64,000 nt of DNA from Clostridia bacterium. Lineage in GTDB: Bacteria > Bacillota > Clostridia > RGIG6154. Shown here in pieces: positions 234 to 47,528 of this stretch. The position numbers and the translations under genes are program-made. The DNA is taken from NCBI GenBank assembly GCA_045589295.1, contig JAZNOU010000002.1, forward strand, positions 88,801 to 152,800, given 5' to 3'. The notes beneath the pieces were generated by a model. It was not told where the DNA came from. It was given only the letters and a program-made list of their open reading frames with translations, and searched no databases. Within the stretch, counting starts at the first letter, position 1. Each line of letters begins with the position of its first letter.

Positions 234-304
234 TATTATTTGGAAAAGCTTACAAATTTTTCTTTATTTTTCTTTGTTTTGTTGACTTTTTTTGGTTTTG
301 CTAT

Positions 305-333
305 TGACTTTGGTTGTAAAGTGGTGTAAAATA
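305..333 (+). promoter_or_regulatory. Sigma-A-type promoter P1 for the GRE operon (TTGACT-17-TAAAAT, AAAGTGG immediately upstream of the -10)
   Basis: Hexamers and spacing read from the sequence; about 30 nt upstream of the HAD gene RBS. Confidence 0.5.
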
Positions 334-361
334 TAGTTGTATTATTATCGAGGTATTATAT

Positions 362-1099
362 ATGAAACTGATTGCAAGTGATTTAGACGGAACTCTTTTG
401 TTAAAAGGAGAGAAAAAACTAAATAGCAGAGTTTTAAAGTCTTTGACAGCGCTTAAATCTTCCGAGATTGATTTTTCAGTTGCGTCAGGCAGAACATATG
501 GCGAACTTATAAGAATTTTTGACGGTTTTTTAAGAGATACATATTTTATTTCATTTGACGGAGCACTAGTGGTTAAAAACGGGGAAAATCTGTATGGCAG
601 TCCTTTTTCAAAGGAGGATTTAAAGCTTATAAATAAGTTTGATGAGTTTGTTTTGCATGGCAAATTTATGACTTATGTGAAATCTCGTTATCCTTATTTT
701 ATAAGAAAGATAAAAAAACAATACAATGGGCACGTGGTGCAAATTTCTGATGTATCCGAAATAAAGGATTGTACTTTTAAGTTGGTTTTGTATAAAAATT
801 TCAGAACGCTGGAAAAACTTCCGTTTGATATGGTGTATAAGGACAATACCTTGTGTGAGTTTGTAAAGCAGGGGACAAACAAAGGAGTTGCTCTTAAAAA
901 TATTTTAAGCGAACTTAAAATACAACCCGAAGATTGTGCTGTGTTCGGCGACAGTGAAAATGATAAAGAGTTTTTAAAAGTTTCACAAAACAGCTTTGCA
1001 GTTAAAAACTCAAAACACGAGATAAGAAAGATTTGCAAATTCTATACTGATGATATTTCATCGACAATTGATATGTTAGTTAAGGAGGCAACAAAATGA
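362..1099 (+). CDS. HAD-superfamily hydrolase, Cof-like (IIB) sugar phosphatase
   Basis: N-terminal DLDGTLL motif and a 245-aa Cof-type layout with C-terminal GDSxND; GAGGT RBS; stop overlaps the GRE start (ATGA). Confidence 0.85.
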   Translation: MKLIASDLDGTLLLKGEKKLNSRVLKSLTALKSSEIDFSVASGRTYGELIRIFDGFLRDTYFISFDGALVVKNGENLYGSPFSKEDLKLINKFDEFVLHGKFMTYVKSRYPYFIRKIKKQYNGHVVQISDVSEIKDCTFKLVLYKNFRTLEKLPFDMVYKDNTLCEFVKQGTNKGVALKNILSELKIQPEDCAVFGDSENDKEFLKVSQNSFAVKNSKHEIRKICKFYTDDISSTIDMLVKEATK

Positions 1100-3627
1100 A
1101 AAAATTTGATTTTGACGGCATTTTAAAAAGTCCTAGAATTGACCGTTTGATTGATAATTTGTTTGTGAAAATGCCGGAAATTGAAGCAGAACGTGCGGTG
1201 CTTCTTACCGAGTCCTATAAGCAGACTGAAGGAGAACCAATTATTTTAAGACGTGCAAAAGCATTTAAAAATATCTGCGAAAAGCTTCCGCTTACAATTC
1301 GTGATGAAGAACTTATCGTAGGTGCTGCAACAAAAGTTGCACGTGGTTGTCAGGTGTTTCCTGAGTATTCTTTTGAATGGCTTGAAGAGGAGTTTGATAC
1401 AGTAGAAACAAGATCTGCAGACCCTTTCCACATTTCTGAAGAAACAAAAGCAACTTTAAAAGAAGTGTATAAGTACTGGAGAGGAAAAACCACCAGCGAT
1501 CTTGCTACTTCATATATGTCGTCTGCGGCATTAAAGGCAATTGAGCACAATATCTTTACACCCGGGAATTATTTTTACAATGGTGTAGGTCACGTTACAG
1601 TTGATTATAAGAAAGTTCTTGAAGTAGGTTACAAGGGCATTATGGCAGAGGCTAAAAAGGCTTTGGCAGAATGTGATGTTGCGCAGTCTGATTATGCATC
1701 AAGAAGTGCATTTTTAGAAGCAGTAATTATAAGCTGCGAGGCAGCAATTACCTTTGCAAAAAGATATTCAGAATATGCTTATCAGCTTGCACAGAATACC
1801 GCAGATGCTACAAGAAAACAGGAACTTTTAATAATTTCAGAAAACTGCGCAAATGTTCCTGAAAATGGTGCAAAATCATTCTATGAGGCTTGTCAGTCAT
1901 TCTGGTTTGTTCAGCTTCTTATTCAGACAGAATCAAGCGGGCACTCAATTTCACCTGGTCGTTTTGACCAGTATATGTATCCTTATTATAAAAAGGATAT
2001 TGATGCAGGCAAAATCACAAAGGAGTTTGCTCAAGAGCTTATTGATTGTGTTTGGGTTAAACTCAACGACTTCACAAAGGTAAGAGATAAAGCATCGGCA
2101 GAAGGTTTTGCAGGCTACAGTTTGTTTCAGAACCTGATTGCAGGCGGTCAGACTCCTGACGGAAGAGATGCCACAAACGACCTTTCATTCATGACAATTG
2201 AAGCAACTATGCATGTGCTTTTGCCACAGCCGTCGTTCTCTGTAAGGGTATGGAACGGAACTCCGCATGAATTTATGATTAAAGCGGGTGAACTTACAAG
2301 AACAGGTGTTGGTCTTCCTGCTTATTATAACGACGAAGTTATTATTCCTGCTTTAGTAAACCGCGGTCTTACTTTAGAAGATGCAAGAAACTACAACATC
2401 ATCGGTTGTGTTGAGCCTCAGTGTCCTGGCAAGACAGATGGATGGCATGATGCAGCGTTTTTTAATATGTGTAGAATTGTAGAGCTTGTTTTCTCAAACG
2501 GTGTTGATGAAGGTGAGAAAATAAGCGTTGACACAGGGAATGTTGAAGACTTTAAAACATTTGAAGAATTTTTTGATGCTTACAAAGCTCATATGAATTA
2601 TATGATAAAGCTTATGGTTAACGCAGACAATGCTATTGATATGGCACATATGAACCGTTGTCCGTTGCCATTCCAGTCATGTATGGTGGCTGACTGTATC
2701 GGCAGAGGCAAATCAATGCAGGAAGGTGGCGCGATTTACAACTTTACAGGTCCGCAAGGATTTGGTATTGCTAATATGGCAGATGCTCTTTATGCAATTA
2801 AAAAGCTTGTATTTGATGAAAAGAAAATTACTTTGGCTGAATTTAAAGAGGCTTTAAAAGATAACTACGGAAGAAGCACAGACGAAAAGCAGGCTATGAG
2901 CATTACAACTGAAATTGTGAGACAGATTGTATCTGCAGGTCAGACAGTTTCTGAAGAAAAAATTGCTGAAATTTACAAAATGGTTGCCGCAAGTGGTGGC
3001 GTAAGCGAAGAGAAAAAAGCAAAATATGATAAGCTTCTTGAGATGATTGATGCACTTCCTAAGTTTGGTAATGACAACAGTGAAGTAGATGCTTTAGCGA
3101 GAGAAGTTGCTTATACATATACAAAGCCATTGGAACAGTATAAAAATCCAAGAGGCGGAAGCTATCAGGCGGGATTATATCCTGTGTCTGCTAACGTTCC
3201 GCTTGGCGCACAGACAGGGGCAACTCCTGACGGAAGGTTTGCTTGTACCCCTGTGGCAGATGGTGTATCGCCTTGTGCAGGCAGGGATGTCAACGGACCT
3301 ACTGCGGCTGCAAACTCTGTTTCAAAGCTTGACCACTTTATTGCATCAAACGGAACGTTATTTAATATGAAGTTCCATCCGTCAGCTTTAAAAGGAAGAG
3401 CGGGTCTTGAGAGCTTTGTTTCGCTTATCAGAGCCTACTTTGACCAGAAAGGCAGTCACATGCAGTTTAACGTTGTAAGCCGTGAAACACTTCGCGATGC
3501 ACAGAAGAATCCTGAAAAGTATAAGAGCTTGGTTGTTCGTGTTGCGGGATATTCTGCACTGTTTACAACACTTTCAAAATCACTTCAGGATGATATTATT
3601 AACAGAACTGAACAAGGTGGATTTTAA
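1096..3627 (+). CDS. Glycyl radical enzyme, PFL2/diol-dehydratase family; probable B12-independent 1,2-propanediol dehydratase of the microcompartment
   Basis: 843 aa; GCVEP thiyl-radical loop; C-terminal RVAGYSALF glycyl-radical motif; directly followed by an activase and BMC genes. Confidence 0.85.
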   Translation: MKKFDFDGILKSPRIDRLIDNLFVKMPEIEAERAVLLTESYKQTEGEPIILRRAKAFKNICEKLPLTIRDEELIVGAATKVARGCQVFPEYSFEWLEEEFDTVETRSADPFHISEETKATLKEVYKYWRGKTTSDLATSYMSSAALKAIEHNIFTPGNYFYNGVGHVTVDYKKVLEVGYKGIMAEAKKALAECDVAQSDYASRSAFLEAVIISCEAAITFAKRYSEYAYQLAQNTADATRKQELLIISENCANVPENGAKSFYEACQSFWFVQLLIQTESSGHSISPGRFDQYMYPYYKKDIDAGKITKEFAQELIDCVWVKLNDFTKVRDKASAEGFAGYSLFQNLIAGGQTPDGRDATNDLSFMTIEATMHVLLPQPSFSVRVWNGTPHEFMIKAGELTRTGVGLPAYYNDEVIIPALVNRGLTLEDARNYNIIGCVEPQCPGKTDGWHDAAFFNMCRIVELVFSNGVDEGEKISVDTGNVEDFKTFEEFFDAYKAHMNYMIKLMVNADNAIDMAHMNRCPLPFQSCMVADCIGRGKSMQEGGAIYNFTGPQGFGIANMADALYAIKKLVFDEKKITLAEFKEALKDNYGRSTDEKQAMSITTEIVRQIVSAGQTVSEEKIAEIYKMVAASGGVSEEKKAKYDKLLEMIDALPKFGNDNSEVDALAREVAYTYTKPLEQYKNPRGGSYQAGLYPVSANVPLGAQTGATPDGRFACTPVADGVSPCAGRDVNGPTAAANSVSKLDHFIASNGTLFNMKFHPSALKGRAGLESFVSLIRAYFDQKGSHMQFNVVSRETLRDAQKNPEKYKSLVVRVAGYSALFTTLSKSLQDDIINRTEQGGF

Positions 3628-4418
3628 TGGATAAGGATTTTTACAATGTAAAAGGGCGAATTTTTGACATTCAGAAATTTTCGGTTCATGATGGTCCTGG
3701 TATAAGAAGCATTGTGTTTTTAAAAGGCTGTGCGCTAAGGTGCAAATGGTGTTGCAATCCTGAGTCTCAAAGTTATGACATACAGCAGATGAATATGGAT
3801 GGTAAAATTAAAACCGTGGGACGTGATGTTACTGTAGCAGAAGTAATGGATGAAGTGCTAAAAGACTTCCCTTATTTCAGACGTTCGGGTGGAGGAATAA
3901 CTCTTTCTGGCGGCGAGTGTTTGCTTCAACCTGACTTTTCGGTGGCTCTTCTAAAGGCAGCAAAGTACAACGGAATTTCTACAGCTATTGAGTCTACTGG
4001 GTTTGCTAAATATGAGGTTATTGAAAAATTGCTTCCTTATTTAGATGTTTATTTGATGGATATAAAACATATGAACAGTGAAAAACACAGGCTTTTTACA
4101 AGTCAACCAAATGAACGGATTTTGGAAAATGCGGTGAAAATAGCACAGAATGCAAAAAAACTTATAATAAGAGTTCCGGTTATTCCGACGTTTAATGATA
4201 CCGTTGAAGAAATAACTGATATTGCAAGATTTGCAAAAAGTCTTAAAAATGTTGATGAAATTCATCTTCTTCCTTACCATAGATATGGAACAGACAAGTA
4301 CAAGTGGCTTGGAAGAAAGTATGAACTTGAAAACATCACTTCGCCGACCGATGAAAAAATGCAGGAGCTTTTAAGAGCAGCAGAAGCTGTAGGGTTAAAT
4401 GCTCAGATAGGAGGGTAA
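3627..4418 (+). CDS. Glycyl-radical enzyme activating enzyme (radical SAM), short PflA-like form
   Basis: CALRCKWC = CxxxCxxC radical SAM motif; 263 aa; no additional Cys-cluster insert; TAATG overlap with the GRE stop. Confidence 0.9.
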   Translation: MDKDFYNVKGRIFDIQKFSVHDGPGIRSIVFLKGCALRCKWCCNPESQSYDIQQMNMDGKIKTVGRDVTVAEVMDEVLKDFPYFRRSGGGITLSGGECLLQPDFSVALLKAAKYNGISTAIESTGFAKYEVIEKLLPYLDVYLMDIKHMNSEKHRLFTSQPNERILENAVKIAQNAKKLIIRVPVIPTFNDTVEEITDIARFAKSLKNVDEIHLLPYHRYGTDKYKWLGRKYELENITSPTDEKMQELLRAAEAVGLNAQIGG

Positions 4419-4419
4419 T

Positions 4420-4788
4420 ATGCAGGATATTTCAATGCAGGATAAAATGAGAATAGTGCAAGAGCTTGTTCCGGGTAAGCAGATTACTCTTGCACATATT
4501 ATTGCAAATCCGGATCAGGTTTTGTATAAAAAATTAGGACTTGACCCTCAGGTTGAGTATTCAAAATCGGCAATTGGAATTATTACACTTTCGCCAAGTG
4601 AAACTGCAATTATAGCAGGTGATATTGCGATAAAGGCGTCAGGAGCAGAGCTTGGATTTGTTGACCGCTTCAGCGGAACACTTATCACAACAGGAACTGT
4701 ATCTGAGGTAGAGGCTTCGATGAACGCAATTTGTGATTATTGCAAAAACAAGCTTGGTTTTACAATTTGTGAAATAACAAAGACCTGA
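4420..4788 (+). CDS. BMC shell protein, PduU/EutS family (circularly permuted BMC-H)
   Basis: 122 aa; PduU/EutS-like sequence; GGAGGG RBS. Confidence 0.75.
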   Translation: MQDISMQDKMRIVQELVPGKQITLAHIIANPDQVLYKKLGLDPQVEYSKSAIGIITLSPSETAIIAGDIAIKASGAELGFVDRFSGTLITTGTVSEVEASMNAICDYCKNKLGFTICEITKT

Positions 4789-4825
4789 TTTTCTGGAGGG
4801 GTTTTACATTAAAAGAATAATTTTT

Positions 4826-5233
4826 ATGGGCAGAACCGGCAGCGGAAAAACATCAATTACGCAGGCGCTTAAAAAACAGCCTGTAAAGTATAAAAAGACT
4901 CAGTACATAAATTATTATGAAGCAATTATTGATACTCCGGGTGAATATGCCGAAAATGCTCACTTAGGAAGGGCACTTGCTCTTTATTCTTATGAGGCAG
5001 ATGTTGTTGGACTTTTGCTTTCTGCAACAGAAGAATATTCGCTTTTCCCGCCAAACATTACTTGCCTTGTAAATCGAGAGGTTGTAGGAATTGTGACAAA
5101 AATTGATAAACAAAATGCAAATCCTGACAGGGCAAAAAAATGGCTTGAGCTTACAGGATGCAAAAAAATATTTTTTGTAAGTTCAAAAACTGGTGAGGGA
5201 ATAGAAGAATTGACTAATTATTTGTCAAAATGA
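4826..5233 (+). CDS. PduV/EutP-family small GTPase (BMC-associated). The true start is probably non-canonical ATT at 4808, giving MKRIIFMGRTGSGKTS
   Basis: GxxGxGKTS P-loop; in-frame upstream extension IKRIIFMG matches the EutP N-terminus and lies 7 nt after GGAGGG. Confidence 0.8.
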   Translation: MGRTGSGKTSITQALKKQPVKYKKTQYINYYEAIIDTPGEYAENAHLGRALALYSYEADVVGLLLSATEEYSLFPPNITCLVNREVVGIVTKIDKQNANPDRAKKWLELTGCKKIFFVSSKTGEGIEELTNYLSK

Positions 5234-5240
5234 AAATAAA

Positions 5241-5260
5241 ACCACAAAAAACCACAAAAA
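5241..5260 (+). repeat. Tandem 10-bp direct repeat ACCACAAAAA x2 (helically phased A-tracts) upstream of promoter P2
   Basis: Seen directly; could be an UP element, a bent-DNA element or a regulator (DeoR) site. Confidence 0.5.
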
Positions 5261-5284
5261 AATTAAAAAAACAACATATTTTTG

Positions 5285-5318
5285 TTGACAAAACAAAGAA
5301 AAAGTGGTACTATTATAT
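5285..5318 (+). promoter_or_regulatory. Sigma-A promoter P2 for the aldolase/shell operon (TTGACA-17-TGgTACTAT, extended -10; shares AAAGTGG with P1)
   Basis: Hexamers and spacing read directly; about 55 nt upstream of the aldolase RBS. Confidence 0.55.
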
Positions 5319-5375
5319 TGTAAACAAATATATTCAAACATAATATACAATTTCAAGAGAAAAGGAGAATAGATT

Positions 5376-6188
5376 ATGACTTCAGAATTTGAAATCAAAA
5401 AACAAATTTGTGACATCGGTAAGAGAATTTACAACAGAGGCATGGTTGCTGCAAATGACGGTAACATTTCTGTTAAGCTTTCCGACAATGAATTTTTGTG
5501 CACACCTACAGGTGTAAGTAAGGGCTTTATGACACCCGAGTACATCTGTAAAGTTGACAGAGACGGTAATGTTATCCAGGCAAATGGTAACTTTAAGCCT
5601 TCTTCTGAAATCAAAATGCACATGAGAGTTTATCAGCAGAGACCTGATGTAAAAAGTGTTGTTCACGCACATCCTATTTACGCAACAAGTTTTGCTATTG
5701 CAGGCATTCCGCTTACACAGCCTATTATGCCTGAAGCAGTTATTGCACTTGGTTGCGTTCCGATTGCTGAGTACGGCACACCTTCTACAATGGAAATTCC
5801 TGATGCTGTAGAAAAATACTTGCAGTATTATGATGCAGTGCTCTTGGCTAACCATGGTGCACTTGCATATTCTGATAGCTTACTTGCAGCATATCACAAG
5901 ATGGAATCTTTGGAATTTTATGCAGAGCTTCTCTTTAAAGCAAAACAGCTTGGTGGCCCAAAAGAATTGTCAGAAGAACAGGTTCAGAGACTTTACGAAA
6001 TCAGAAGACAGTTCGGTATGACAGGTAAACATCCTGCAGACCTCTGCCCAAATGCTAAAGACGGAAAAACAAGCTGCCATTCATGCGGCGGACACTGCGG
6101 CGGACACAAAGCTGCTACAATAAGCGGGGCAGATGCTGATTTGGTTGCATCAATTACAAAAAGAGTAATGGAACAGCTTGGCAAATAA
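5376..6188 (+). CDS. Class II aldolase (L-fuculose/L-rhamnulose-1-phosphate aldolase family) with a Cys/His-rich linker and a C-terminal encapsulation peptide
   Basis: Class II aldolase core (HAHPIYATSFAIAG); C-terminal tail CPNAKDGKTSCHSCGGHCGGHK followed by amphipathic DADLVASITKRVMEQLGK; AAAAGGAG RBS. Confidence 0.85.
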   Translation: MTSEFEIKKQICDIGKRIYNRGMVAANDGNISVKLSDNEFLCTPTGVSKGFMTPEYICKVDRDGNVIQANGNFKPSSEIKMHMRVYQQRPDVKSVVHAHPIYATSFAIAGIPLTQPIMPEAVIALGCVPIAEYGTPSTMEIPDAVEKYLQYYDAVLLANHGALAYSDSLLAAYHKMESLEFYAELLFKAKQLGGPKELSEEQVQRLYEIRRQFGMTGKHPADLCPNAKDGKTSCHSCGGHCGGHKAATISGADADLVASITKRVMEQLGK

Positions 6189-6212
6189 TTGCACTTTGAA
6201 AGGAGCAGTTAT

Positions 6213-6686
6213 ATGAATGAGCAAAATATTTCTTCTTTGGTAGCTGCTGCAATTAAAGACGTGATTTTAAACTCTTCTTCCGAAATGAATCTCGACAAGG
6301 CTAAGAAGCTTGCTTTAATTGTTGAAAACGAAGCAAAAAGGATTGGGGTTAAGGCAGTGGTTGCAATTTCCAATTCGGGAGCAAGACCTGTTTTGGTTGA
6401 GTGTATGGATGATTCTTATATAGCAAGTTATGATGTTGCTTTTAACAAAGCCTACACTGTAGTTGCACTCAAAATGCCAACTTCAAAGCTTAAAACTTTG
6501 AGCCAGCCCAACCAACCACTTTACGGTATACAATTTACTAATCAAGGACAGATTGTTATTTTCGGCGGTGGTGAGCCACTTTATAAAGATGGTAAGATAG
6601 TTGGAGGCCTTGGGGTAAGCGGCGGAACCGAAGAACAAGATACCTACCTTGCTGAGTTTGGTGCTAAAGCATGGGAGGAACTTTAA
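6213..6686 (+). CDS. DUF336 / GlcG / PduO C-terminal-domain-like (heme-binding-like) protein
   Basis: About 157 aa with GGG.P and GVSGG motifs typical of DUF336; AAGGAG RBS before the ATG at 6213 (the track start at 6189 is TTG). Confidence 0.7.
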   Translation: MNEQNISSLVAAAIKDVILNSSSEMNLDKAKKLALIVENEAKRIGVKAVVAISNSGARPVLVECMDDSYIASYDVAFNKAYTVVALKMPTSKLKTLSQPNQPLYGIQFTNQGQIVIFGGGEPLYKDGKIVGGLGVSGGTEEQDTYLAEFGAKAWEEL

Positions 6687-6687
6687 A

Positions 6688-8217
6688 ATGACCGAACTAA
6701 AGAAAAAAGCTCTTGAAATTGCAAAGAGCAAATCCAGTACGGTTGTTGAAGTTTTTAGAGAAGAAAAACAAGAGTTTATTTATTATCTTATTGAAAACGG
6801 CGGATATTTCGCAAATGATAATGAGATAAAAAGGCTTGAAACACATGCAGTTACAAAAGCTGACAATTTAAATGCTGTGTTGTTTAAAATGAAAGCAATT
6901 ACAGCATACGACCACAAGTTTATAATTTATGATGCCGACAAGGCATATTTAGACGGGTTTAATGTTCCAATGGTTGGAATTAAAACCTTAAAAAAAGAAA
7001 AAAGGAGCGCTGAAATGGATATTAATCAGGATAAAATTCAGGCAATAGTTCAGCAGGTTCTGTCCGAAATGGGAGGAAATGCAAAGCCGGCTCCAAAGGC
7101 AACAGGTGGCGCAATCCCCAAAACAAGCAGGGCGGCAATGCTCACAAAGCTTGAAAATTACGAAATAAAAGAGTTCCCTATTCCTGAGCTTGGCGACGAT
7201 GACATTTTAGTTAAAGTTGAAGGTTGCGGCGTTTGCGGAACCGATGCACACGAATTCAAACGTGATCCCTTTGGTCTTATCCCACTTGTTCTCGGTCACG
7301 AGGGCACGGGCGAAATTGTAAAGATGGGTAAAAACGTTAAAAAGGACAGTGCAGGAAAGCCACTTAACGTTGGCGATAAAGTTGTTACCTGTATGATCTT
7401 TAAAGACAATCCGGATATCACAATGTTTGATTTAAACAAACAAAATGTCGGCGGTGCAGATGTCTACGGACTTCTCCCTGATGATGACATTCACTTAAAT
7501 GGTTGGTTTGCAGACTACATAGTAGTAAGAGGCGGTTCTACAGTATTTAATGTTAGCGACTTAGACCTCGATTCAAGAATTTTAATTGAACCTTGTGCAG
7601 TTTTAATTCACGCAGTAGAACGTGCTAAAACAACAGGAATTTTAAAATTCAATTCAAGAGTTGTTGTTCAGGGTTGTGGACCTATCGGTCTTATCTGTAT
7701 CGCGATTCTTCGTACAATGGGTATTGAAAATATCGTTGCAGTAGATGGCGAACAAAAAAGACTTGATTTTGCAAGAGAAATGGGCGCGACAGGTACAGTT
7801 AACTTCAAAGACCACAAGGGTATTGAAGCACTTACCGGTGCAGTAGAAAACGAATTTGGCGGATACTTAGCTGACTTTGCATTCCAGTGCACTGGCTCAC
7901 CAATTGCTCACGCTAACATTTACAAGTTTATAAGAAACGGTGGCGGTCTTTGCGAACTCGGTTTCTTTATAAACGGCGGCGACGCTACAATCAATCCACA
8001 CTTTGACATTTGTTCAAAGGAAATCACAACAGTAGGTTCTTGGGTTTACACTTTAAGAGATTATGCTACAACATTTGATTTCTTAAAGAGAGCAAAAGGT
8101 ATCGGACTTCCGATGGAAAAGCTCATCACTCACAAGTTCCCACTTGACCAAATCAATGAGGCTCACATCACAAACCTTAAGATGGAAGGCCTTAAAATAG
8201 CAATAGTAAATGATTAA
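6688..8217 (+). CDS. Zn-dependent MDR-family alcohol dehydrogenase, fused in frame to an uncharacterised ~109-aa N-terminal domain and an internal encapsulation-peptide-like helix; a possible second start lies at 7015
   Basis: GCGVCGTDAHE and GHEGTGE Zn-ADH motifs and a GxGxxG Rossmann fold; GGGAGG RBS before ATG 6688; internal AAAAGGAG + ATG at 7015 followed by MDINQDKIQAIVQQVLSEMGG and a Pro/Ala-rich linker. Confidence 0.8.
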   Translation: MTELKKKALEIAKSKSSTVVEVFREEKQEFIYYLIENGGYFANDNEIKRLETHAVTKADNLNAVLFKMKAITAYDHKFIIYDADKAYLDGFNVPMVGIKTLKKEKRSAEMDINQDKIQAIVQQVLSEMGGNAKPAPKATGGAIPKTSRAAMLTKLENYEIKEFPIPELGDDDILVKVEGCGVCGTDAHEFKRDPFGLIPLVLGHEGTGEIVKMGKNVKKDSAGKPLNVGDKVVTCMIFKDNPDITMFDLNKQNVGGADVYGLLPDDDIHLNGWFADYIVVRGGSTVFNVSDLDLDSRILIEPCAVLIHAVERAKTTGILKFNSRVVVQGCGPIGLICIAILRTMGIENIVAVDGEQKRLDFAREMGATGTVNFKDHKGIEALTGAVENEFGGYLADFAFQCTGSPIAHANIYKFIRNGGGLCELGFFINGGDATINPHFDICSKEITTVGSWVYTLRDYATTFDFLKRAKGIGLPMEKLITHKFPLDQINEAHITNLKMEGLKIAIVND

Positions 8218-8236
8218 TTTTAGGAGGGTATAAATC

Positions 8237-8512
8237 ATGGCATTAGAAGCATTAGGTATGATTGAAACAAGAGGTCTTACTGCAGCAATTGAAGCGGCAG
8301 ACGCAATGGTTAAAGCTGCAGAAGTAACACTTATCGGAACTGAAAAAATCGGTTCAGGATTAGTAAGTGTTATGGTTCGTGGTGATGTAGGAGCAGTTAA
8401 AGCTGCTACAGAAGCAGGTTCTGCTTGCGCATCTCGCCTTGGCGAATTGGTTGCAGTTCACGTAATCCCAAGACCACACGCTGATGTTGAAAAAATTCTC
8501 CCCAAATTCTAA
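8237..8512 (+). CDS. BMC-H shell protein (PduA/EutM-like hexamer)
   Basis: 91 aa; canonical Pfam00936 BMC-domain sequence [14 protein letters not shown]...; AGGAGGG RBS. Confidence 0.92.
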
Positions 8513-8528
8513 TTAAGAGGTGAGATAA

Positions 8529-8906
8529 ATGGCAACAGCTAAAAAGACAACTAAGGCGGCTGCTCCAAAAGCAGAGCCTAAAAAAGAAGTAAATATCAAG
8601 GTTGAATCTATTAAGGAGGAAAAGAAAATGGCATTAGAAGCATTAGGTATGGTAGAAACAAGAGGTTTGGTAGCTGCAATTGAAGCTGCCGATGCAATGC
8701 TCAAAGCTGCAAACGTACAGCTTTTAGGAACTGAAAGAATCGGTTCTGGTTTGGTAAGCGTTATGGTTCGCGGTGATGTAGGCGCTGTTAAAGCTGCTGT
8801 AGAAGCTGGTCAGGCAAGTGCTCAGAGACTCGGCGAAATCATTGCTACACACGTAATTCCAAGACCTCATGGTGATGTTGAAAAAATTCTTCCGTCACTC
8901 AAATAA
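8529..8906 (+). CDS. BMC-H shell protein with a 33-aa Lys/Ala-rich N-terminal extension (PduJ/K-like); alternative internal start at 8628
   Basis: BMC domain nearly identical to the upstream paralog; N-terminal tail [19 protein letters not shown]...; RBS present both at 8513-8523 and internally (AAGGAGG at 8613-8619). Confidence 0.85.
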
Positions 8907-8925
8907 TTTAACTGTCAAATATAAG

Positions 8926-8951
8926 GGTTGCCGTGCTTAAATGCACGGCGA
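8926..8951 (+). other. Stable intercistronic RNA hairpin (GTTGCCGTGC-ttaaat-GCACGGCGAC) with no U-tract, between the BMC-H and BMC-P genes
   Basis: 10-bp GC-rich stem read directly; position suggests an mRNA stability/processing element or a partial attenuator. Confidence 0.45.
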
Positions 8952-8982
8952 CCTGATGATAGTATTACGGGAGGGTACTTAA

Positions 8983-9243
8983 ATGATTATCGGTAAGGTA
9001 ATAGGAAGCATTGTTTCCACAAGAAAAAACGAAAATTTAGTTGGCAATAAATTTATGATTGTTGAACCTGCTCAAAAAACTGGAAATGGCAACATCGTTG
9101 CAGTTGATAATATCGGTGCAGGTATCGGAGAGTATGTTTTAGTTGCAACAGGCAGTGCGGCAAGAATTGGCTGCAATATGGAATCAAGTCCTGTTGATGC
9201 TGCAATTGTCGGAATAATTGATGATGCAAGCGAATTAAAATAA
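8983..9243 (+). CDS. BMC-P vertex (pentamer) protein, EutN/PduN/CcmL family
   Basis: 86 aa; EutN/CcmL family sequence MIIGKVIGSIVSTRK...; GGGAGGG RBS. Confidence 0.9.
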   Translation: MIIGKVIGSIVSTRKNENLVGNKFMIVEPAQKTGNGNIVAVDNIGAGIGEYVLVATGSAARIGCNMESSPVDAAIVGIIDDASELK

Positions 9244-9264
9244 AACTATTATGAAAGGTAACAA

Positions 9265-10602
9265 ATGGCTATGACACTTGAAAAATTGCAACAGCTTATG
9301 AAGGACAATGGTATAGTCGGTGCCGGTGGTGCTGGATTTCCTTCATACGCAAAGTTGGATAAAAGAGCAGATACGATTATATTAAACTGTGCAGAGTGTG
9401 AGCCTCTTTTAAAGCTTCACAGACAGCTTTTGGCAGAGTATGCGTATGAAATTATGAGCACTCTTGACTTAATTGCTGATTTAGTTGATGCAAAAAGTGT
9501 TATTATTGCTGTAAAACATGCCTATACTGAGGCTGTTAATGCGGTAAAAGCCAATCTTGATTCTTTTAAAAGAATAAGCATTGGATATTTACCTGAAATT
9601 TATCCGGCAGGCGATGAGGTTGTTACAATTTATGAAACAACCAAGAGAGTCGTTGCACCGGGTAAGCTCCCCATTACGGTGGGAGTAACGGTGTTTAATG
9701 TTGAAACTATTTATAATGTGTACAGAGCGATAAATGAAAATGAGCCTGTTACATATAAATACATAACTGTTGCAGGCGAGGTTAAAAAACCTGTGACAGT
9801 AAAAGTTCCTCTTGGAACATCAATTAAAGAAGTCATCAAAATGGCAGGTGGCGCAACCGTTGAGGATTATAAGTTAATCAACGGCGGACCTATGACAGGT
9901 GGCTTGATTGAAGAATTTCAGACAGTAACAAAGACAACAAATGGTATTTTGGTTATGCCTAAAGACCATTATATTATAAATAAAAGATTGGCAAGCATCA
10001 AGACCGATATGAAACGTGCTATGAGTGCTTGTTGCCAGTGTAAAATGTGCACAGATATGTGTTCAAGAAATCTTTTGGGACACCCTATAAAACCTCATGA
10101 ATTTATGAGAGTGGCAACATCGGGAGTTACAAGAGATATTGAACCATTTATTAATACAATGTTTTGTTCTGCGTGCGGACTTTGCGAGATGTATGCCTGC
10201 AATCAGGGGCTTTCACCAAGAGCTTTGATTTTAGCTTACAAGAACGGACTAAGACAAAACGGAATAAAAATCCCAGATGATATTTCATTTAAAGAAGTAT
10301 CAAAGCAGAGGGAATTCAGAAAAGTTCCCATGCATCGTCTTGTTGCAAGACTTGGACTTACACCATATGACAAACCTGCACCACTTGATAATGAACTCAA
10401 AAGTGTAAAAACTGTGAAAATTGCATTAGCACAACATATTGGTGCACCTTGCAATGCAGTTGTTAAAAAAGGTGACAAGGTTAAAAGTGGACAGATAATT
10501 GGAGAATCGTCGGTTGACAAGTTGGGTGTGAACATTCACGCATCGATATCTGGTGTTGTACTTGATGTCAACGACAGATTTGTTACTATAAAAGGAGAGT
10601 AA
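9265..10602 (+). CDS. PduS-like Fe-S flavoprotein (RnfC/NuoF-type NADH-binding module with two 4Fe-4S motifs)
   Basis: GAGGAGFP nucleotide motif; CCQCKMCTDMC and CSACGLCEMYAC ferredoxin motifs; 445 aa. Confidence 0.85.
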   Translation: MAMTLEKLQQLMKDNGIVGAGGAGFPSYAKLDKRADTIILNCAECEPLLKLHRQLLAEYAYEIMSTLDLIADLVDAKSVIIAVKHAYTEAVNAVKANLDSFKRISIGYLPEIYPAGDEVVTIYETTKRVVAPGKLPITVGVTVFNVETIYNVYRAINENEPVTYKYITVAGEVKKPVTVKVPLGTSIKEVIKMAGGATVEDYKLINGGPMTGGLIEEFQTVTKTTNGILVMPKDHYIINKRLASIKTDMKRAMSACCQCKMCTDMCSRNLLGHPIKPHEFMRVATSGVTRDIEPFINTMFCSACGLCEMYACNQGLSPRALILAYKNGLRQNGIKIPDDISFKEVSKQREFRKVPMHRLVARLGLTPYDKPAPLDNELKSVKTVKIALAQHIGAPCNAVVKKGDKVKSGQIIGESSVDKLGVNIHASISGVVLDVNDRFVTIKGE

Positions 10603-10605
10603 GGT

Positions 10606-11154
10606 ATGGGAAAAGCAATTGGTATGGCTGAATTTCAGAATGTGTCATCAGGTGTTCAAGCTGCTGATATTATCATTAAAACAGCCGATGTAGATGTAAT
10701 TGAGGCACAGGTTGTGTGCCCTGGTAAATACATAATAATCATTACAGGACAGCTGAGTGCTGTAAGAGCTTCCATTGATGCAGCAAAAGTTAAGTTTGCA
10801 CAGACAATGGTAGACAGTTTTGTACTTGGAAATCCCGATGAATCAATTTTCCCTGCAATTTACGGCTCAAATCCTGTTGAAAACCCAAACGCTTTAGGTG
10901 TTTTGGAAACATACTCTGCAGCTTCAATTATTGTTGCTGCTGACCTTGCAGCAAAAACTGCAGATGTTAATTTGATTGAACTCAGAATTGCGAGAGGTAT
11001 GTGCGGTAAGTCTTATATGTATATTACAGGCGAGGTTGCTGCAGTAACCGCTTCAATAGAAAATGCAAAAGCTAAAATTGGTGATAACGGAATGTTGCTT
11101 GATGCATCGGTTATTCCAAATCCTGATAAAAAACTTTGGGACACAATTTTATAA
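10606..11154 (+). CDS. BMC-T tandem-BMC-domain shell protein, PduT-like, with a conserved Cys (VVCPGKY) for a 4Fe-4S site
   Basis: 182 aa, two BMC domains; Cys at about residue 38 as in PduT. Confidence 0.85.
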   Translation: MGKAIGMAEFQNVSSGVQAADIIIKTADVDVIEAQVVCPGKYIIIITGQLSAVRASIDAAKVKFAQTMVDSFVLGNPDESIFPAIYGSNPVENPNALGVLETYSAASIIVAADLAAKTADVNLIELRIARGMCGKSYMYITGEVAAVTASIENAKAKIGDNGMLLDASVIPNPDKKLWDTIL

Positions 11155-11226
11155 GCTGGAGCATAGAAGAAATAAAGCTTATAATGAAACGGCAGTATGG
11201 TAATTTATAATAGAGGGTGAGAACTT

Positions 11227-12618
11227 ATGAATATTAGTGAAAGCTACATTAAACAAATTGTAGAACAGGTAATAAACGGAACACAGACCGTGGCTGGCAA
11301 CAAAACACTTAAAGGTGTATTCCCCACAATGGGCGAGGCGCTTGTTGCAGTTGAAAAAGCTTATAAAGAATTTAAATCATACAGCGTAGCACAGCGTGAG
11401 AAAATGATTTCTAAAATCAGAGAATACACATTGGCAGAAGCTGAAAATATGGCGGTGCTTGGTGTAAAAGAAACCAAAATGGGAAGGGTTTCTGATAAAA
11501 TTATCAAGCATCAGTTGGTTGCAAACAAAACTCCGGGTACTGAAGATTTACAGCCATCAGTTATGACAGGTGATGATGGTATGACATTGGTTGAAATGGC
11601 ACCTTACGGTGTAATTGGTAGTATCACACCTTCAACAAATCCATCAGAAACTGTTATTTGCAACTCAATGGGTATGATTGCAGGCGGAAATGCGGTTGTA
11701 TTTAATCCGCATCCTAACGCGTGTGATACAGCAAATTATGCAGTTGACCTTGTTAACAGAGCAGTTTTAGAGGCGGGAGGCCCAGAAAACTTAGTAGTTT
11801 CTGTTGCAAAACCTACGAGAGAGTCTTCAAATGAAATGATGGCTTCTCCTGTAGTTAAAATGCTTGTTGCAACAGGCGGACCTGGTGTTGTTAAAGCACT
11901 CTTGTCTTCTGGTAAAAAGGCAATTGGTGCAGGGGCAGGAAATCCTCCTGTTATTGTTGACGATACTGCAGATATTGAAAAAGCGGGCGCAGATATTGTT
12001 AAAGGTGCAAGCTTTGACAATAACTTGCCATGTATTGCAGAAAAAGAATGTTTTGTATTTAACAACGTGGCAGACAGACTTATTGCTTCAATGCTTGAAA
12101 ATGGTGCGTACCTTGTTAAAGGAGCAGACATTGATAAGCTTGTTAAAGTCGCACTTGTTGAAAAAGACGGAAAATATTCAATCAATAAAGATTTTGTAGG
12201 CAGAGATGCTTCTAAGTTCTTAAAAGAAATTGGAATTGATGCAGATCCAAGACTTATAATCTGTGAAACGGATTTTAACCATCCGTTTGTTCAGGAAGAA
12301 CTTATGATGCCAATTTTGCCGATTGTAAGAGTTAACAATATTGACGAAGCTATTGAACTTGCTGTTAAGGCAGAACACGGCAACCGTCACACAGCACATA
12401 TTCATTCAAAGAATATCGACCACCTTACAAGATTTGCAAGAGCGGTTGAAACAACAATTTTTGTTAAAAATGCTCCTTCTTATGCAGGTATCGGTGCAGG
12501 CGGAGAAGGTTATACAACATTTACTATAGCAGGTCCTACAGGTGAAGGTTTAACAGCTGCTCATTCATTCACCAGAAGCAGAAGATGCGTTATGGTAGAC
12601 GGACTTCATATTGTTTAA
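11227..12618 (+). CDS. CoA-acylating aldehyde dehydrogenase (PduP/EutE family) with an N-terminal encapsulation peptide
   Basis: 463 aa ALDH fold with a catalytic Cys region; N-terminal amphipathic SYIKQIVEQVING. Confidence 0.88.
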   Translation: MNISESYIKQIVEQVINGTQTVAGNKTLKGVFPTMGEALVAVEKAYKEFKSYSVAQREKMISKIREYTLAEAENMAVLGVKETKMGRVSDKIIKHQLVANKTPGTEDLQPSVMTGDDGMTLVEMAPYGVIGSITPSTNPSETVICNSMGMIAGGNAVVFNPHPNACDTANYAVDLVNRAVLEAGGPENLVVSVAKPTRESSNEMMASPVVKMLVATGGPGVVKALLSSGKKAIGAGAGNPPVIVDDTADIEKAGADIVKGASFDNNLPCIAEKECFVFNNVADRLIASMLENGAYLVKGADIDKLVKVALVEKDGKYSINKDFVGRDASKFLKEIGIDADPRLIICETDFNHPFVQEELMMPILPIVRVNNIDEAIELAVKAEHGNRHTAHIHSKNIDHLTRFARAVETTIFVKNAPSYAGIGAGGEGYTTFTIAGPTGEGLTAAHSFTRSRRCVMVDGLHIV

Positions 12619-12647
12619 TTTTACTTATTGACGAAAGGAAAGCGAAA

Positions 12648-13289
12648 ATGAAAGCTTTGGGAATGATAGAAGTTTATAGCTTTACAACTGCTGTATGTGT
12701 TGCCGACGTTGCAGCAAAGGCAGCAGATGTTAAGGTTATTGCTTTTGATAGAAACAGACCTATATCCCCTGATGTTCCAGCTCCGGTTGTAATGATTGTT
12801 AAAATTGAGGGTGAGGTTGCTGCAGTCAGAGCTGCAGTTGAAGCAGGTGTGAATTATTCAAAGGAAAAGGGTAAGTACATTGTATCTCATATAATTGCAC
12901 GTCCTGATGAAGACACAGAAAATATGGCTTATCTTATAGATATAAACAAAGATAAGTACAACAAAAAATTCCCCAAGAACTTTAAGGGCGTACAAACTTC
13001 AGAGCCTGAAACAAAAGGTGCTATTGGACTTTTGGAGGTAGAGGGTTTGGTTGCTTCAATTGAAGGATTGGATACAATGCTTAAAGCTGCTGAAGTTAAG
13101 CTGGTACATACAGAAAAAAGACTTGGAGGTAGACTTGTAACTTACATTATAACAGGTAATGTATCCTCAGTTAAAGCGGCTGTGGAAGCAGGTTATAGTG
13201 GTGCAAAAGTTTTAGGAAGAGTTTTTGGTAATGAGATAATTGCAAATCCTCATAATGAAGTACTTAAATTTTTTGATATGGAAGTTTAA
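12648..13289 (+). CDS. BMC-T tandem-BMC-domain shell protein
   Basis: Two Pfam00936-like domains (MKALGMIEV... and GAIGLLEVEGL...); the start at 12648 has an AAAGGAAAG RBS; the longer frame from 12585 overlaps pduP and is rejected. Confidence 0.85.
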   Translation: MKALGMIEVYSFTTAVCVADVAAKAADVKVIAFDRNRPISPDVPAPVVMIVKIEGEVAAVRAAVEAGVNYSKEKGKYIVSHIIARPDEDTENMAYLIDINKDKYNKKFPKNFKGVQTSEPETKGAIGLLEVEGLVASIEGLDTMLKAAEVKLVHTEKRLGGRLVTYIITGNVSSVKAAVEAGYSGAKVLGRVFGNEIIANPHNEVLKFFDMEV

Positions 13290-13312
13290 TGTTGCATAAA
13301 GGAAGAGTTTTT

Positions 13313-13969
13313 ATGGATACAAAAATCATTGAAGATGCAGTTTTAAAGGCTATAAATGAATATAATATGGACGTAAGCGGCGAAATCAAAGTGGGTGTGT
13401 CACAAAGACATATTCATCTATCCCGTGAAGACCTTGACATTTTGTTTGGAAAAGGATATGAACTTACAAAAAAGAAAACTTTGATGGGAAGAGAGTATGC
13501 CTCGGAAGAAACAGTAACCTTAGTTGGACCATCACTAAAATCCATTGAAAAGGTGAGAGTTTTAGGTCCTGTGAGAAAAGACACACAGGTTGAAATTTCA
13601 AGAACGGATACTTTTATTTTAAAGGTTAGTCCGCCTGTTCGTCCGTCAGGTAAAATTGAAGGTTCTGAAAAAGTTGTTGTTGTAGGACCTAAAGGCAGTG
13701 TGTATTTAAGGCAGGGTGTTATTATTGCTAATCGTCACATTCATCTTACACCTGCTTACGCTGAGCGCCACGACATTAAAGACGGCGACTATGTTGATGT
13801 TATGGTTGAAGGCATTAAGCCAACCAAGTTTTTTGATGTTCAGGTGCGCGTGAGAGATGATTTTAATGTTGAAATGCATATTGATACTGATGATGCAAAC
13901 TCAGCAGGAATCAAAAACGGCAGTATTGTTAAAATTGTAAGAAAATGCGAAGATTGCAATTGTCGTTAA
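13313..13969 (+). CDS. pduL: Phosphate propanoyl/acetyl-transferase PduL with an N-terminal encapsulation peptide
   Basis: PduL family sequence with duplicated HxH-containing beta-barrel halves (SQRHIHLS, ANRHIHLT); N-terminal MDTKIIEDAVLKAINEY; AAAGGAAGAG RBS. Confidence 0.88.
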   Translation: MDTKIIEDAVLKAINEYNMDVSGEIKVGVSQRHIHLSREDLDILFGKGYELTKKKTLMGREYASEETVTLVGPSLKSIEKVRVLGPVRKDTQVEISRTDTFILKVSPPVRPSGKIEGSEKVVVVGPKGSVYLRQGVIIANRHIHLTPAYAERHDIKDGDYVDVMVEGIKPTKFFDVQVRVRDDFNVEMHIDTDDANSAGIKNGSIVKIVRKCEDCNCR

Positions 13970-13984
13970 GATAGTAGGGGTGAT

Positions 13985-14749
13985 ATGATGTTTGCTCTGG
14001 AACGCCAGAAAAAGATTTTAGAGCTTTTAGAACAAGATGGTGCGGTGTTTGTTACAAAATTAAGCACAGAACTTGGTGTTACAGAAGAAACCGTTCGCCG
14101 AGATCTTGAGAAGCTTGAAAAACAAGAGGCTTTAGTCAGAACTCACGGAGGCGCAATGCCGATTGTTGAATCTAACAGAGAGCTTTCTTTAGAAAAAAGA
14201 AAAAATATAAATGTTGATGCCAAAATTCGCTTAGCAAAAGAAGCGGTTAATCATATTGTGTCGGGTGATACAGTGTTTTTAGATGCATCGACTACAACGT
14301 TTTACATTGCCAGAGAACTTAAAAACTTTAAGAATGTTACTATTGTAACAAATTCGCTAAGAGTTATAACCGAGCTTGCAGGTCAGCCAAATTTAAATGT
14401 TATTGCAATCGGGGGGTACGCTTCTGATAATCAGTCACTTGTAGGGAGTATTGCTCAAAGAGATATTGCGAATAATTATTTTGCAAATAAGATGTTCTTC
14501 TCAAGCCGAGGCATGACAGAAAGTGTAGGTATTTTAGAAAGTAACGAGCAAGAGTGTGGTATAAAGCAGGCAATGATGAAAAATGCTGAGAAAAAATACT
14601 ACGTTTGCGATCACTCCAAAATTGGAAGGGTTGGATTTGCAAAGCTAGCACAATTTACCGATGTTGACTATGTAATTACTGAGGGACCTTTAGGAGAGTC
14701 GTTTAAAAAAATATTCGAAGATATTGACACGAAATTAGTTGAGATATAA
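13985..14749 (+). CDS. DeoR-family transcriptional regulator (HTH plus sugar-phosphate-binding domain), likely regulator of the locus
   Basis: N-terminal DeoR HTH (RQKKILELLEQDGAVFVTKLSTELGVTEETVRRDLEKLE); 254 aa. Confidence 0.88.
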   Translation: MMFALERQKKILELLEQDGAVFVTKLSTELGVTEETVRRDLEKLEKQEALVRTHGGAMPIVESNRELSLEKRKNINVDAKIRLAKEAVNHIVSGDTVFLDASTTTFYIARELKNFKNVTIVTNSLRVITELAGQPNLNVIAIGGYASDNQSLVGSIAQRDIANNYFANKMFFSSRGMTESVGILESNEQECGIKQAMMKNAEKKYYVCDHSKIGRVGFAKLAQFTDVDYVITEGPLGESFKKIFEDIDTKLVEI

Positions 14750-14752
14750 TAA

Positions 14753-14784
14753 AAACAGGTGCACAACGCACCTGTTTTATTATT
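14753..14784 (+). terminator. Rho-independent terminator ending the microcompartment operon
   Basis: ACAGGTGC-acaac-GCACCTGT followed by TTTATTATTT. Confidence 0.8.
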
Positions 14785-14946
14785 TGAATAATTTTAGCAA
14801 AAGTAGTTGAATTTTAACTTATTATATTATATACTATTTGTAAGGTTGATACAATGCTCAAATCAAGAATATGTGCTTATAAGCAAAGCTTGGTGTAATG
14901 GGCGTTATTGAGATTGTAACACTAATTGTAAATGCATAAAAGAGGA

Positions 14947-47418: not shown

Positions 47419-47528
47419 AAAAAACGCCCCTTGCTTTTATATATTCCTTTAAAATATATGAAAGCGAAGGGGAGTTAATTACTGTATTTGTAAGGTTAAA
47501 TTTTTCAAGTTCTTTTATACTCTTATAG

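Follow-up and report, generated by a model that had tools for sequence, protein, structure and literature searches.

Organization of the Locus

The DNA analyzed here is a 64,000-nucleotide stretch from Clostridia bacterium (assembly GCA_045589295.1, contig JAZNOU010000002.1, positions 88,801 to 152,800), referred to throughout as the window, and the subject of this report is a glycyl radical enzyme microcompartment (GRM) locus within it. Classification with Pfam and NCBIfam showed that 17 co-directional genes on the + strand (362–14749, in the stretch 300–14790) encode a bacterial microcompartment (BMC) with a glycyl radical enzyme (GRE). The component set, the gene order, the identity of the GRE, and published GRM5 traits agree, and the window therefore very probably contains a complete GRM5 locus, serving the anaerobic utilization of two 6-deoxyhexoses, L-fucose and L-rhamnose. 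Its zinc-binding alcohol dehydrogenase (ADH) carries an extra N-terminal domain that appears to derive from the aldehyde dehydrogenase PduP and that precedes a second, internal translation start. The features of the locus are listed below, with protein lengths in amino acids (aa) and supporting matches in parentheses.

198–233, + strand: terminator-like hairpin at the left border, at the end of the preceding gene (16-bp stem, then a T-run)
304–332, + strand: promoter-like site P1, TTGACT-17-TAAAAT, 5′ of the HAD gene (consensus scan only)
362–1099, + strand: HAD-IIB Cof-type sugar phosphatase, 245 aa (PF08282, 1.6e-37)
1096–3627, + strand: GRE, predicted (S)-1,2-propanediol dehydratase type, 843 aa (match to 5i2a, 1285.7 bits)
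3627–4418, + strand: GRE-activating radical SAM enzyme, 263 aa, without ferredoxin-like insertion (PF04055, PF13353)
4420–4788, + strand: EutS/PduU-like (permuted) BMC shell protein, 122 aa (NCBIfam EutS, 114.9 bits; partial PF00936)
4808–5233, + strand: PduV/EutP small GTPase (PF10662, 1.3e-48; first ATG at 4826)
5285–5313, + strand: promoter-like site P2, TTGACA-17-TACTAT with TG, within a gap of 143 bp 5′ of the aldolase gene (consensus scan only)
5376–6188, + strand: class II aldolase (fuculose/rhamnulose-phosphate type), 270 aa (PF00596, 5.6e-51)
6189–6686, + strand: DUF336/HbpS-like (PduO C-terminal-domain-like) protein (PF03928, 3.8e-33)
6688–7002, + strand: N-terminal domain of the ADH, residues 1 to ~105, apparently an inactive fragment of the PduP catalytic domain
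7003–7017, + strand: internal Shine–Dalgarno element AGGAG (7003–7007) and ATG (7015–7017), read from the sequence
7015–8217, + strand: encapsulation peptide MDINQDKIQAIVQQVLSEM (nt 7015–7068), linker, and Zn-MDR ADH/lactaldehyde reductase (PF08240, PF00107)
8237–8512, + strand: BMC-H shell protein, 91 aa (PF00936, 8.8e-30)
8529–8906, + strand: BMC-H shell protein, 125 aa, with an N-terminal extension of ~35 aa rich in Lys and Ala (PF00936 at residues 38–113)
8983–9243, + strand: BMC-P vertex protein, EutN/CcmL family (PF03319, 2.8e-30)
9265–10602, + strand: PduS-like flavin/Fe-S oxidoreductase, 445 aa (PF01512, PF10531, PF13534, PF13375)
10606–11154, + strand: PduT-like BMC-T, 182 aa, Cys38 (two BMC domains; TIGR02526, 119 bits)
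11227–12618, + strand: PduP-like CoA-acylating aldehyde dehydrogenase, 463 aa, N-terminal encapsulation peptide, Cys269 (NF011927, 673.9 bits; cut-off 403)
12648–13289, + strand: second tandem-domain BMC-T, ~213 aa (two PF00936 domains)
13289–13969, + strand: PduL phosphotransacylase, 226 aa, N-terminal helix resembling an encapsulation peptide (PF06130, 4.7e-70; NF011652, 244 bits, cut-off 209)
13985–14749, + strand: DeoR-family regulator, 254 aa (PF00455, PF08220)
14752–14778, no strand assigned: bidirectional terminator-like hairpin at the right border

Every component named in a preliminary description of this DNA was located on the + strand; that inventory was correct as far as it went but had overlooked the DUF336/HbpS-like gene. 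Six shell genes were assigned, with no further shell gene in the locus, and the tail ascribed to one BMC-H protein does exist, although it sits at the N terminus. The two sigma-A operons proposed earlier fit the layout on the basis of consensus matches: P1 and P2, the best-placed promoter-like sites, fall in the only two sizeable intergenic gaps, and hairpins bracket the locus. Promoter-like matches in total, however, are not above chance (47 versus 40.4 ± 6.5 expected). A scan with Rfam found no riboswitch or other RNA within the locus and only two tRNAs elsewhere in the window.

The Glycyl Radical Enzyme and Its Activase

The GRE (PF02901 and PF01228) and its cognate radical SAM activase adjoin the BMC shell genes. 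The best match of the GRE in the PDB is the Roseburia inulinivorans diol dehydratase 5i2a, to which it aligns end to end, both proteins having 843 aa, with 65% identity in a global alignment; glycerol dehydratase follows at 1055.8 bits, and the CutC structures score about 532 bits. The active-site alignment called for in the preliminary description returned the residues of a diol dehydratase, and a CutC-like active site was not found. His166, Ser284, Phe344, Cys438-Val-Glu440, Val696/697, and the radical Gly817/818 are identical in the GRE and 5i2a, whereas glycerol dehydratase 1r8w has Tyr and Ser in place of Phe344 and Val697. Cys438 and Glu440 correspond to the CxE pair that touches propanediol in propanediol dehydratase (PMC13450708). 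Because Phe344 and Val697 match 5i2a and not glycerol dehydratase, the pocket appears to be of the propanediol type, and 1,2-propanediol dehydratase activity is predicted.

Other identities were considered on the same data. The GRE falls below the NCBIfam cut-offs for CutC (TIGR04394; 614 versus 1050 bits), HypD (645 versus 1100 bits), and HpfG (738 versus 1000 bits), and these failed cut-offs, together with residues 344 and 697, ruled out all three families as well as glycerol dehydratase. An insertion of ~50 aa (residues ~600–649, nt ~2893–3045) breaks the alignment to glycerol dehydratase; in GRM3, GRM4, and GRM5 dehydratases an insertion of ~50–60 aa has been taken as a predicted internal encapsulation peptide (PMC6325248).

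The activase aligns in one piece to the pyruvate formate-lyase activating enzyme, whereas its alignment to the models of other GRE activases is split by a gap of ~40 aa. It has no ferredoxin-like insertion of ~70 aa, and only GRM5 activases are without this insertion (PMC6325248).

Comparison with Published GRM5 Loci

The GRM5 type, which degrades fucose and rhamnose anaerobically to propionate or propanol, is well described. Its ancillary genes include “a hydrolase,” DUF336, DeoR, PduS, and a class II aldolase (Axen et al. 2014; PMC4207490), and its alcohol dehydrogenase has zinc-binding Pfams rather than the usual iron-type ones (PMC4207490), as also reported for the loci of Clostridium phytofermentans and R. 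inulinivorans (Petit et al. 2013; PMC3557285). Ferlez et al. (2019; PMC6325248) defined the GRM5 lactaldehyde reductase by PF00107/PF08240 and found PduS and PduT in 57 of 57 GRM5 loci. In C. phytofermentans, the structural genes Cphy_1174–1186 are induced 15.7- to 86.6-fold on fucose and rhamnose, and BMCs are seen, whereas Cphy_1187, encoding the DeoR regulator, shows only a ~2-fold change (PMC3557285). Induction, a need for the locus in growth, and polyhedral bodies are established just for C. phytofermentans and R. inulinivorans (PMC3557285).

In the window, a zinc-binding MDR protein (PF00107 and PF08240) stands in place of an iron-type ADH. An acylating aldehyde dehydrogenase and PduL form the core, accompanied by DeoR and by the hydrolase and DUF336 ancillary genes; GrpU is absent, and homologues of both PduS and PduT are present. 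The aldolase ends in an amphipathic encapsulation peptide, DADLVASITKRVMEQLGK (D253–K270, nt 6132–6185), which is shared by ~76 loci. The loci of C. phytofermentans (Cphy_1174–1187) and R. inulinivorans are alike in their propanediol-dehydratase GRE, short activase, class II aldolase with a C-terminal encapsulation peptide, and Zn-MDR ADH, and likewise in PduP, PduL, PduS, PduT, a PduU-like protein, BMC-H, BMC-P, and DeoR (PMC3557285). They differ in that pduP lies directly 5′ of the ADH gene, whereas in the window PduP, BMC-T, and PduL follow PduT; the window also adds the leading HAD gene, PduV, DUF336, and the N-terminal domain of the ADH.

Other microcompartment types share only parts of this set. 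GRM3 and GRM4 loci have a propanediol-dehydratase GRE with an insertion resembling an internal encapsulation peptide, PduP, PduL, and a shell (PMC6325248; PMC5311937), but they are without aldolase or Zn lactaldehyde reductase, their activases have the ferredoxin-like insertion, and they start from free 1,2-propanediol. PVM and PVM-like loci act on derivatives of fucose and rhamnose through a homologous class II aldolase that likewise ends in an encapsulation peptide (PMC4207490; PMC4594438), but they are without a GRE, their core enzymes take lactaldehyde directly, and their context is aerobic.

Related Loci and Gene Orders

When GTDB species genomes were scanned with the ADH, at least 593 stretches were found to encode a relative. 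Eighty loci were fetched, and the window proteins were mapped onto them by tblastn. Three gene orders emerged. Type A (HAD, GRE, activase, EutS, PduV, aldolase, DUF336, ADH, BMC-H, BMC-H, BMC-P, PduS, PduT, PduP, BMC-T, PduL, DeoR) is the order of the window and is found in ~28 of the 80, mostly in metagenome-assembled genomes (MAGs) of uncultured Clostridia and Oscillospiraceae from gut and rumen (for example, the loci numbered L001 and L003–L018). L001 is 75–96% identical to the window per protein, except for PduS (61%), the N-terminal domain of the ADH (64%), and PduT (73%). In type B, found in Lachnospiraceae (Dorea, Lachnotalea, Konateibacter, Mobilisporobacter), pduP lies directly 5′ of the ADH gene, as in Cphy_1177–1187 in Table 1 of Petit et al. 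(PMC3557285). Type C, from Acutalibacteraceae and others, ends in DeoR, PduP, and PduL.

The type-A MAG loci match the window gene for gene, including the leading HAD gene and the N-terminal domain of the ADH, and show no difference of substance; only the PduV start of the window differs, being ATT instead of ATG. Three fetched loci (L036, L047, L068) have GRE, activase, EutS, PduV, Zn-ADH, shell genes, PduP, and DeoR but gave no matches to the aldolase, DUF336, PduS, or PduL. They may represent a derivative that has no aldolase and takes free 1,2-propanediol as its starting point.

These comparisons bear on the claim that the locus departs from GRM5 in five ways, for which a gene-for-gene match was named as the refutation. 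The exact order, HAD and Zn-ADH included, recurs in the type-A loci. Three of the supposed departures dissolve: the HAD gene corresponds to the published “hydrolase” (PMC4207490) and comes first in ~28 fetched loci, the Zn-MDR enzyme is the defining GRM5 alcohol dehydrogenase (PMC3557285; PMC4207490; PMC6325248), and the short activase is itself a published GRM5 trait (PMC6325248). The Cys/His linker of the aldolase is real but canonical for GRM5, recurring in ~76 aldolase tails ahead of a C-terminal encapsulation peptide that is already published (PMC4594438). The extra domain of the ADH is likewise real, and absent from loci with the C. phytofermentans order, but it is common to ~27 of the fetched loci.

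Proposed Pathway and Substrate

Orthology to studied loci suggests a simple model, which supports the sequence of reactions from sugar-phosphate cleavage to propionyl-CoA and propionyl-phosphate put forward in the preliminary description. L-fuculose-1-phosphate or L-rhamnulose-1-phosphate, produced by enzymes encoded elsewhere in the genome, would enter the shell, where the tagged class II aldolase would split it into dihydroxyacetone phosphate and L-lactaldehyde. The Zn-MDR dehydrogenase would use NADH to reduce lactaldehyde to (S)-1,2-propanediol, and the GRE, turned on by the short activase, with electrons likely supplied through PduS and PduT, would dehydrate the diol to propionaldehyde. 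PduP would convert propionaldehyde to propionyl-CoA, regenerating NADH, and PduL would form propionyl-phosphate; part of the propionaldehyde may go to 1-propanol. The BMC-H, BMC-T, BMC-P, and EutS-like proteins would form the shell, and DeoR would control the locus.

The best PDB matches of the aldolase are L-fuculose-phosphate aldolases, and it is 71–91% identical to the aldolases of all three GRM5 arrangements. Several points nevertheless weigh against the proposed pathway. No NCBIfam equivalog cut-off is reached by the aldolase (the top score, for 3-oxo-tetronate-4-phosphate decarboxylase, is 145.8 versus 250 bits), and its presumed specificity for fuculose or rhamnulose phosphate rests on orthology. 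The 64-kb window was searched for isomerase, kinase, and transporter genes for fucose or rhamnose and none was found, so the feeding pathway is unseen; in C. phytofermentans these genes are likewise reported apart from the locus. The roles of HAD, DUF336, and PduV are unsettled in the literature, and it is a conjecture that the HAD protein is probably a cytosolic sugar-phosphate safety valve. Finally, the DNA seems to come from an uncultured MAG lineage of Clostridia, in which the locus is known from its genes alone.

The aldolase scores and the missing fucose and rhamnose genes would also suit a locus handling a different sugar phosphate, as would the caution in a 2026 review that annotation-based GRM functions may conceal variability (PMC13450708). 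This possibility was raised earlier on account of the HAD gene, the Zn-ADH, its N-terminal domain, and the Cys/His linker. We consider this very improbable. Four of the five features cited are published GRM5 traits, standard in loci that respond to fucose and rhamnose, and the doubt about the substrate is therefore unsupported; moreover, the similarity of the aldolases extends across the arrangements, as does that of the catalytic part of the ADH (83–95% identical across the 80 loci), and the active site of the GRE equals that of propanediol dehydratase. No reason was found to doubt fuculose or rhamnulose phosphate. That the GRE is instead a choline trimethylamine-lyase, glycerol dehydratase, or other eliminase is scarcely credible: glycerol dehydratase is its second-best PDB match, but the failed CutC, HypD, and HpfG cut-offs, Phe344 and Val697, and the insertion of ~50 aa that typifies GRM3/4/5 propanediol dehydratases all speak against it.

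A Conserved Motif in the Aldolase Tail

Between its core and its encapsulation peptide, the aldolase carries the Cys/His motif HPADLCPNAKDGKTSCHSCGGHCGGH (H219–H244, nt 6030–6107). The tail reads GKHPA(D/N)xCxN...SCHxC, followed by further Cys and Gly residues and then the encapsulation peptide. The core H-P-A-[DN]-x-C...S-C-H-x-C is kept, practically without exception, in the ~76 aldolase tails recovered from the 80 loci, in all three gene orders. Aussignargues et al. (2015; PMC4594438) described the C-terminal encapsulation peptide of this aldolase as following a linker of 23–81 residues with 5.5% Cys. Whereas the literature treats the region as an unconserved linker, the recovered tails indicate that within GRM5 it is no random linker. 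The motif may form a metal or Fe-S site.

The ADH Carries a PduP-Homologous N-Terminal Domain

The complete ADH open reading frame (ORF; 6688–8217) encodes 509 aa: ~105 residues, then the encapsulation peptide MDINQDKIQAIVQQVLSEM, a linker, and the dehydrogenase. ATG 6688, with GGAGG at 6674–6678 ahead of it, is the most likely translation start; the reading frame opens earlier, at TTG 6649, which is an unlikely start. Profile–profile comparison with hhalign identified the N-terminal domain as homologous to PduP residues 248–371 (96.5% probability, E = 7e-10), whereas controls with the GRE, aldolase, and ADH profiles and with a reversed PduP profile gave the domain at most 4.6% probability. 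The C-terminal end of PduP had been the first guess for its origin and was discarded when hhalign placed the domain at these internal residues. They lie within the catalytic domain (238–427), which in Cphy1178 makes the main inter-subunit contact with the oligomerization domain (PMC4762007).

A gap of nine residues removes the loop that holds the catalytic Cys269 of PduP. With residues ~248–371 only, no complete NAD-binding or catalytic domain, and no Cys269, the domain fails as a PduP/EutE enzyme; the sequence identifies it as a PduP homologue but no enzyme of that family. Its fold is confidently predicted. No description of a PduP-derived domain at the N terminus of an ADH was found in the accessible literature, a scope outside which Zarzycki et al. 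(2015) falls.

The domain is closest to type-B PduP (E = 2e-10), ahead of type-A PduP, which is encoded in the same loci (1.5e-6), and type-C PduP (2e-5). All of the best BLASTP matches, and 13 of the 14 PduPs listed by hmmsearch, are of type B. Because type-B pduP lies directly 5′ of the ADH gene, an older upstream pduP suggests itself as the source. The simplest account of the origin would be that this gene decayed in frame once a second pduP had taken over downstream. We propose that in this sub-clade the ADH gene absorbed ~105 codons of the former upstream pduP and that the earlier ribosome-binding site and ATG of the ADH were retained within the enlarged ORF.

Distribution, Selection, and a Nested Start

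The ADH frame is open for at least 95 codons 5′ of the encapsulation peptide in 27 of the 80 loci, and the domain is also carried by L034, L038, and L069; in the remaining fetched loci the ADH begins exactly at the Met of the encapsulation peptide. Database homologues of the ADH correspondingly fall into two classes, of ~500–524 aa and ~400 aa. The domain was not found in Lachnospiraceae-type loci with the C. phytofermentans gene order. In a neighbor-joining tree of GRE, aldolase, and ADH, which is rough and midpoint-rooted, the loci with the domain fall mostly in one group. L069 (10001–10260) and the protein P0130 have the domain as a separate 112-aa ORF with its own stop, in a frame different from that of the ADH and located between DUF336 and the ADH gene, which starts at its own Shine–Dalgarno element and ATG.

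A profile search of 1.84 billion cluster representatives, clustered at 50% so that fused ADHs collapse into short-form representatives, returned 21 matches, of which 19 are short proteins or fragments. The other two match long proteins (2902 and 785 aa) weakly and in several stretches and were taken as spurious; no other architecture with the domain was found in this search. With just 21 matches, the domain appears confined to this lineage.

Pairwise dN/dS is 0.10–0.51 for the domain and 0.015–0.075 for the catalytic part of the ADH, with dS often saturated, and the domain evolves 5–10 times faster than the enzyme part. Values well below 1 indicate that the domain is translated and under purifying selection, although of a much weaker kind than that acting on the enzyme.

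A purine-rich element resembling a Shine–Dalgarno sequence lies ~7 nt before the internal start in 27 of 27 fused genes, mostly as AGGAG and in a few as a GAGG-type sequence; in three of the 27 the start itself is displaced by a couple of codons. Element and start persist where the encoded residues differ (for example, Arg-Ser versus Arg-Arg), which argues for selection on the RNA signal and hence for a second, canonical product of 400 aa. ATG 7015 would thus be the ancestral ADH start and is the candidate start of a short isoform, so that two isoforms, of 509 and 400 aa, are plausible predictions. Nested starts of this kind have precedents: PduB/PduB′ and CcmM58/CcmM35 are each produced from one ORF with a second in-frame Shine–Dalgarno element and ATG, the products differing by an N-terminal domain. 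The ADH differs from these cases in that its products are predicted from conserved signals and its extra domain is a pseudo-enzyme fragment.

A Relic or an Adaptor?

Two explanations of the domain were weighed. The first, toward which we lean slightly, is that it is a tolerated relic without a specific role, left by the in-frame decay of pduP between DUF336 and the ADH gene. The closeness to type-B PduP, which occupies that very position in Lachnospiraceae-type loci, the deletion of the catalytic Cys loop, the relaxed constraint, and the tiny size of the family, nearly all of it short proteins or fragments, are all consistent with a relic. At these divergences, however, a neutral remnant should gather stop codons, yet dN/dS stays well below 1, and the domain also survives as a separate ORF.

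The second explanation is that the domain is a functional adaptor. As a mimic of PduP, it would dock the lactaldehyde reductase on PduP or on its oligomerization arms, coupling a consumer and a producer of NADH 1:1 within the shell, with the nested starts providing the two isoforms. An ORF kept open in ~27 species despite saturated dS would suit such a role, as would the dN/dS range, the confidently predicted fold, the stand-alone ORFs, and the retention of the internal start signals at the nucleotide level; the homologous part of Cphy1178 is, moreover, the surface that touches the partner's oligomerization domain (PMC4762007). But docking on PduP is pure inference, the domain evolves far faster than the enzyme, and most GRM5 loci function without it, which leaves an adaptor role possible but rather unlikely. 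A fuller version would hold that the sub-clade domesticated the ~105-codon pduP fragment, makes both a long and a short isoform, and uses the PduP mimic to tether the reductase to PduP or to organize cargo in the shell; this is more speculative still.

Other Features of the Locus and the Window

Stretches resembling encapsulation peptides occur on further proteins of the locus. The DUF336 protein, which likely starts at ATG 6213, would carry one at its N terminus (NISSLVAAAIKDVIL, 6213–6290), and amphipathic N-terminal stretches of similar appearance are found on PduP (SESYIKQIVEQVING, 11227–11290) and PduL (TKIIEDAVLKAINEY, 13289–13390). If these are counted, nearly every enzyme of the locus would be tagged, save HAD, the activase, and PduV. 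The stop of the HAD gene, which encodes no encapsulation peptide, overlaps the GRE start; the protein is below all NCBIfam equivalog cut-offs, and its best PDB matches are the Escherichia coli YbiV/SupH sugar phosphatases 1rlm and 2hf2. The ORF of the second BMC-T runs from 12585 and shares its first 34 nt with the end of pduP; Met22 (12648), where the BMC domain and the homologues begin, is more likely to be the start.

At PduV, codon 4808, six codons 5′ of ATG 4826, is ATT in the window, as against ATG in 44 of 59 relatives. An in-frame IKRIIF runs from 4808, preceded by GGAGG (in GGAGGGG), where relatives open with MKRIIFMGR... (window 4795–4830). The true start is probably 4808, and a start at ATG 4826 would cost the first β-strand before the P-loop. 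The ATT could be a non-canonical start, mark an N-terminally truncated PduV, or be a sequencing error.

The remainder of the window is housekeeping in character (pyruvate kinase, FtsW, several aminoacyl-tRNA synthetases, Ddl, RuvAB, GroEL, S2/EF-Ts, FeoB, ComEC). Positions 1–190 hold the 3′ end of a small Cys/Asp-rich ORF (CDCDCDDDD...CPNCGEE...CDCGCCDHE) that resembles a Zn ribbon and lies just before the terminator at 198–233. Two adjacent 551-aa paralogues of the class I Glu/Gln-type tRNA synthetases (17639–19294 and 19314–20969), probably GluRS and GlnRS or a non-discriminating pair, are followed by MetRS. On the − strand at 46176–48503, an NPHP3_N-like P-loop NTPase protein (327 aa) adjoins a WYL/WCX-domain regulator (324 aa), a pairing frequent in defence islands.

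Implications

GRM5 loci have been catalogued since 2014–2015, are common in gut and rumen Clostridia, and have an established chemistry, so the locus itself adds little, and features flagged as non-canonical should not count as evidence for a new substrate. The H-P-A-D-x-C ... S-C-H-x-C motif of the aldolase tail is strictly conserved, in a region where the literature sees an unconserved linker. A modest positive result is that, in one GRM5 sub-clade, the Zn-ADH appears to bear a PduP fragment that is catalytically dead and under selection, followed by an internal encapsulation peptide and accompanied by a conserved nested start. If this domain is functional, it would represent a natural case of pseudo-enzyme-mediated cargo pairing for cofactor recycling, which would be relevant to microcompartment engineers.

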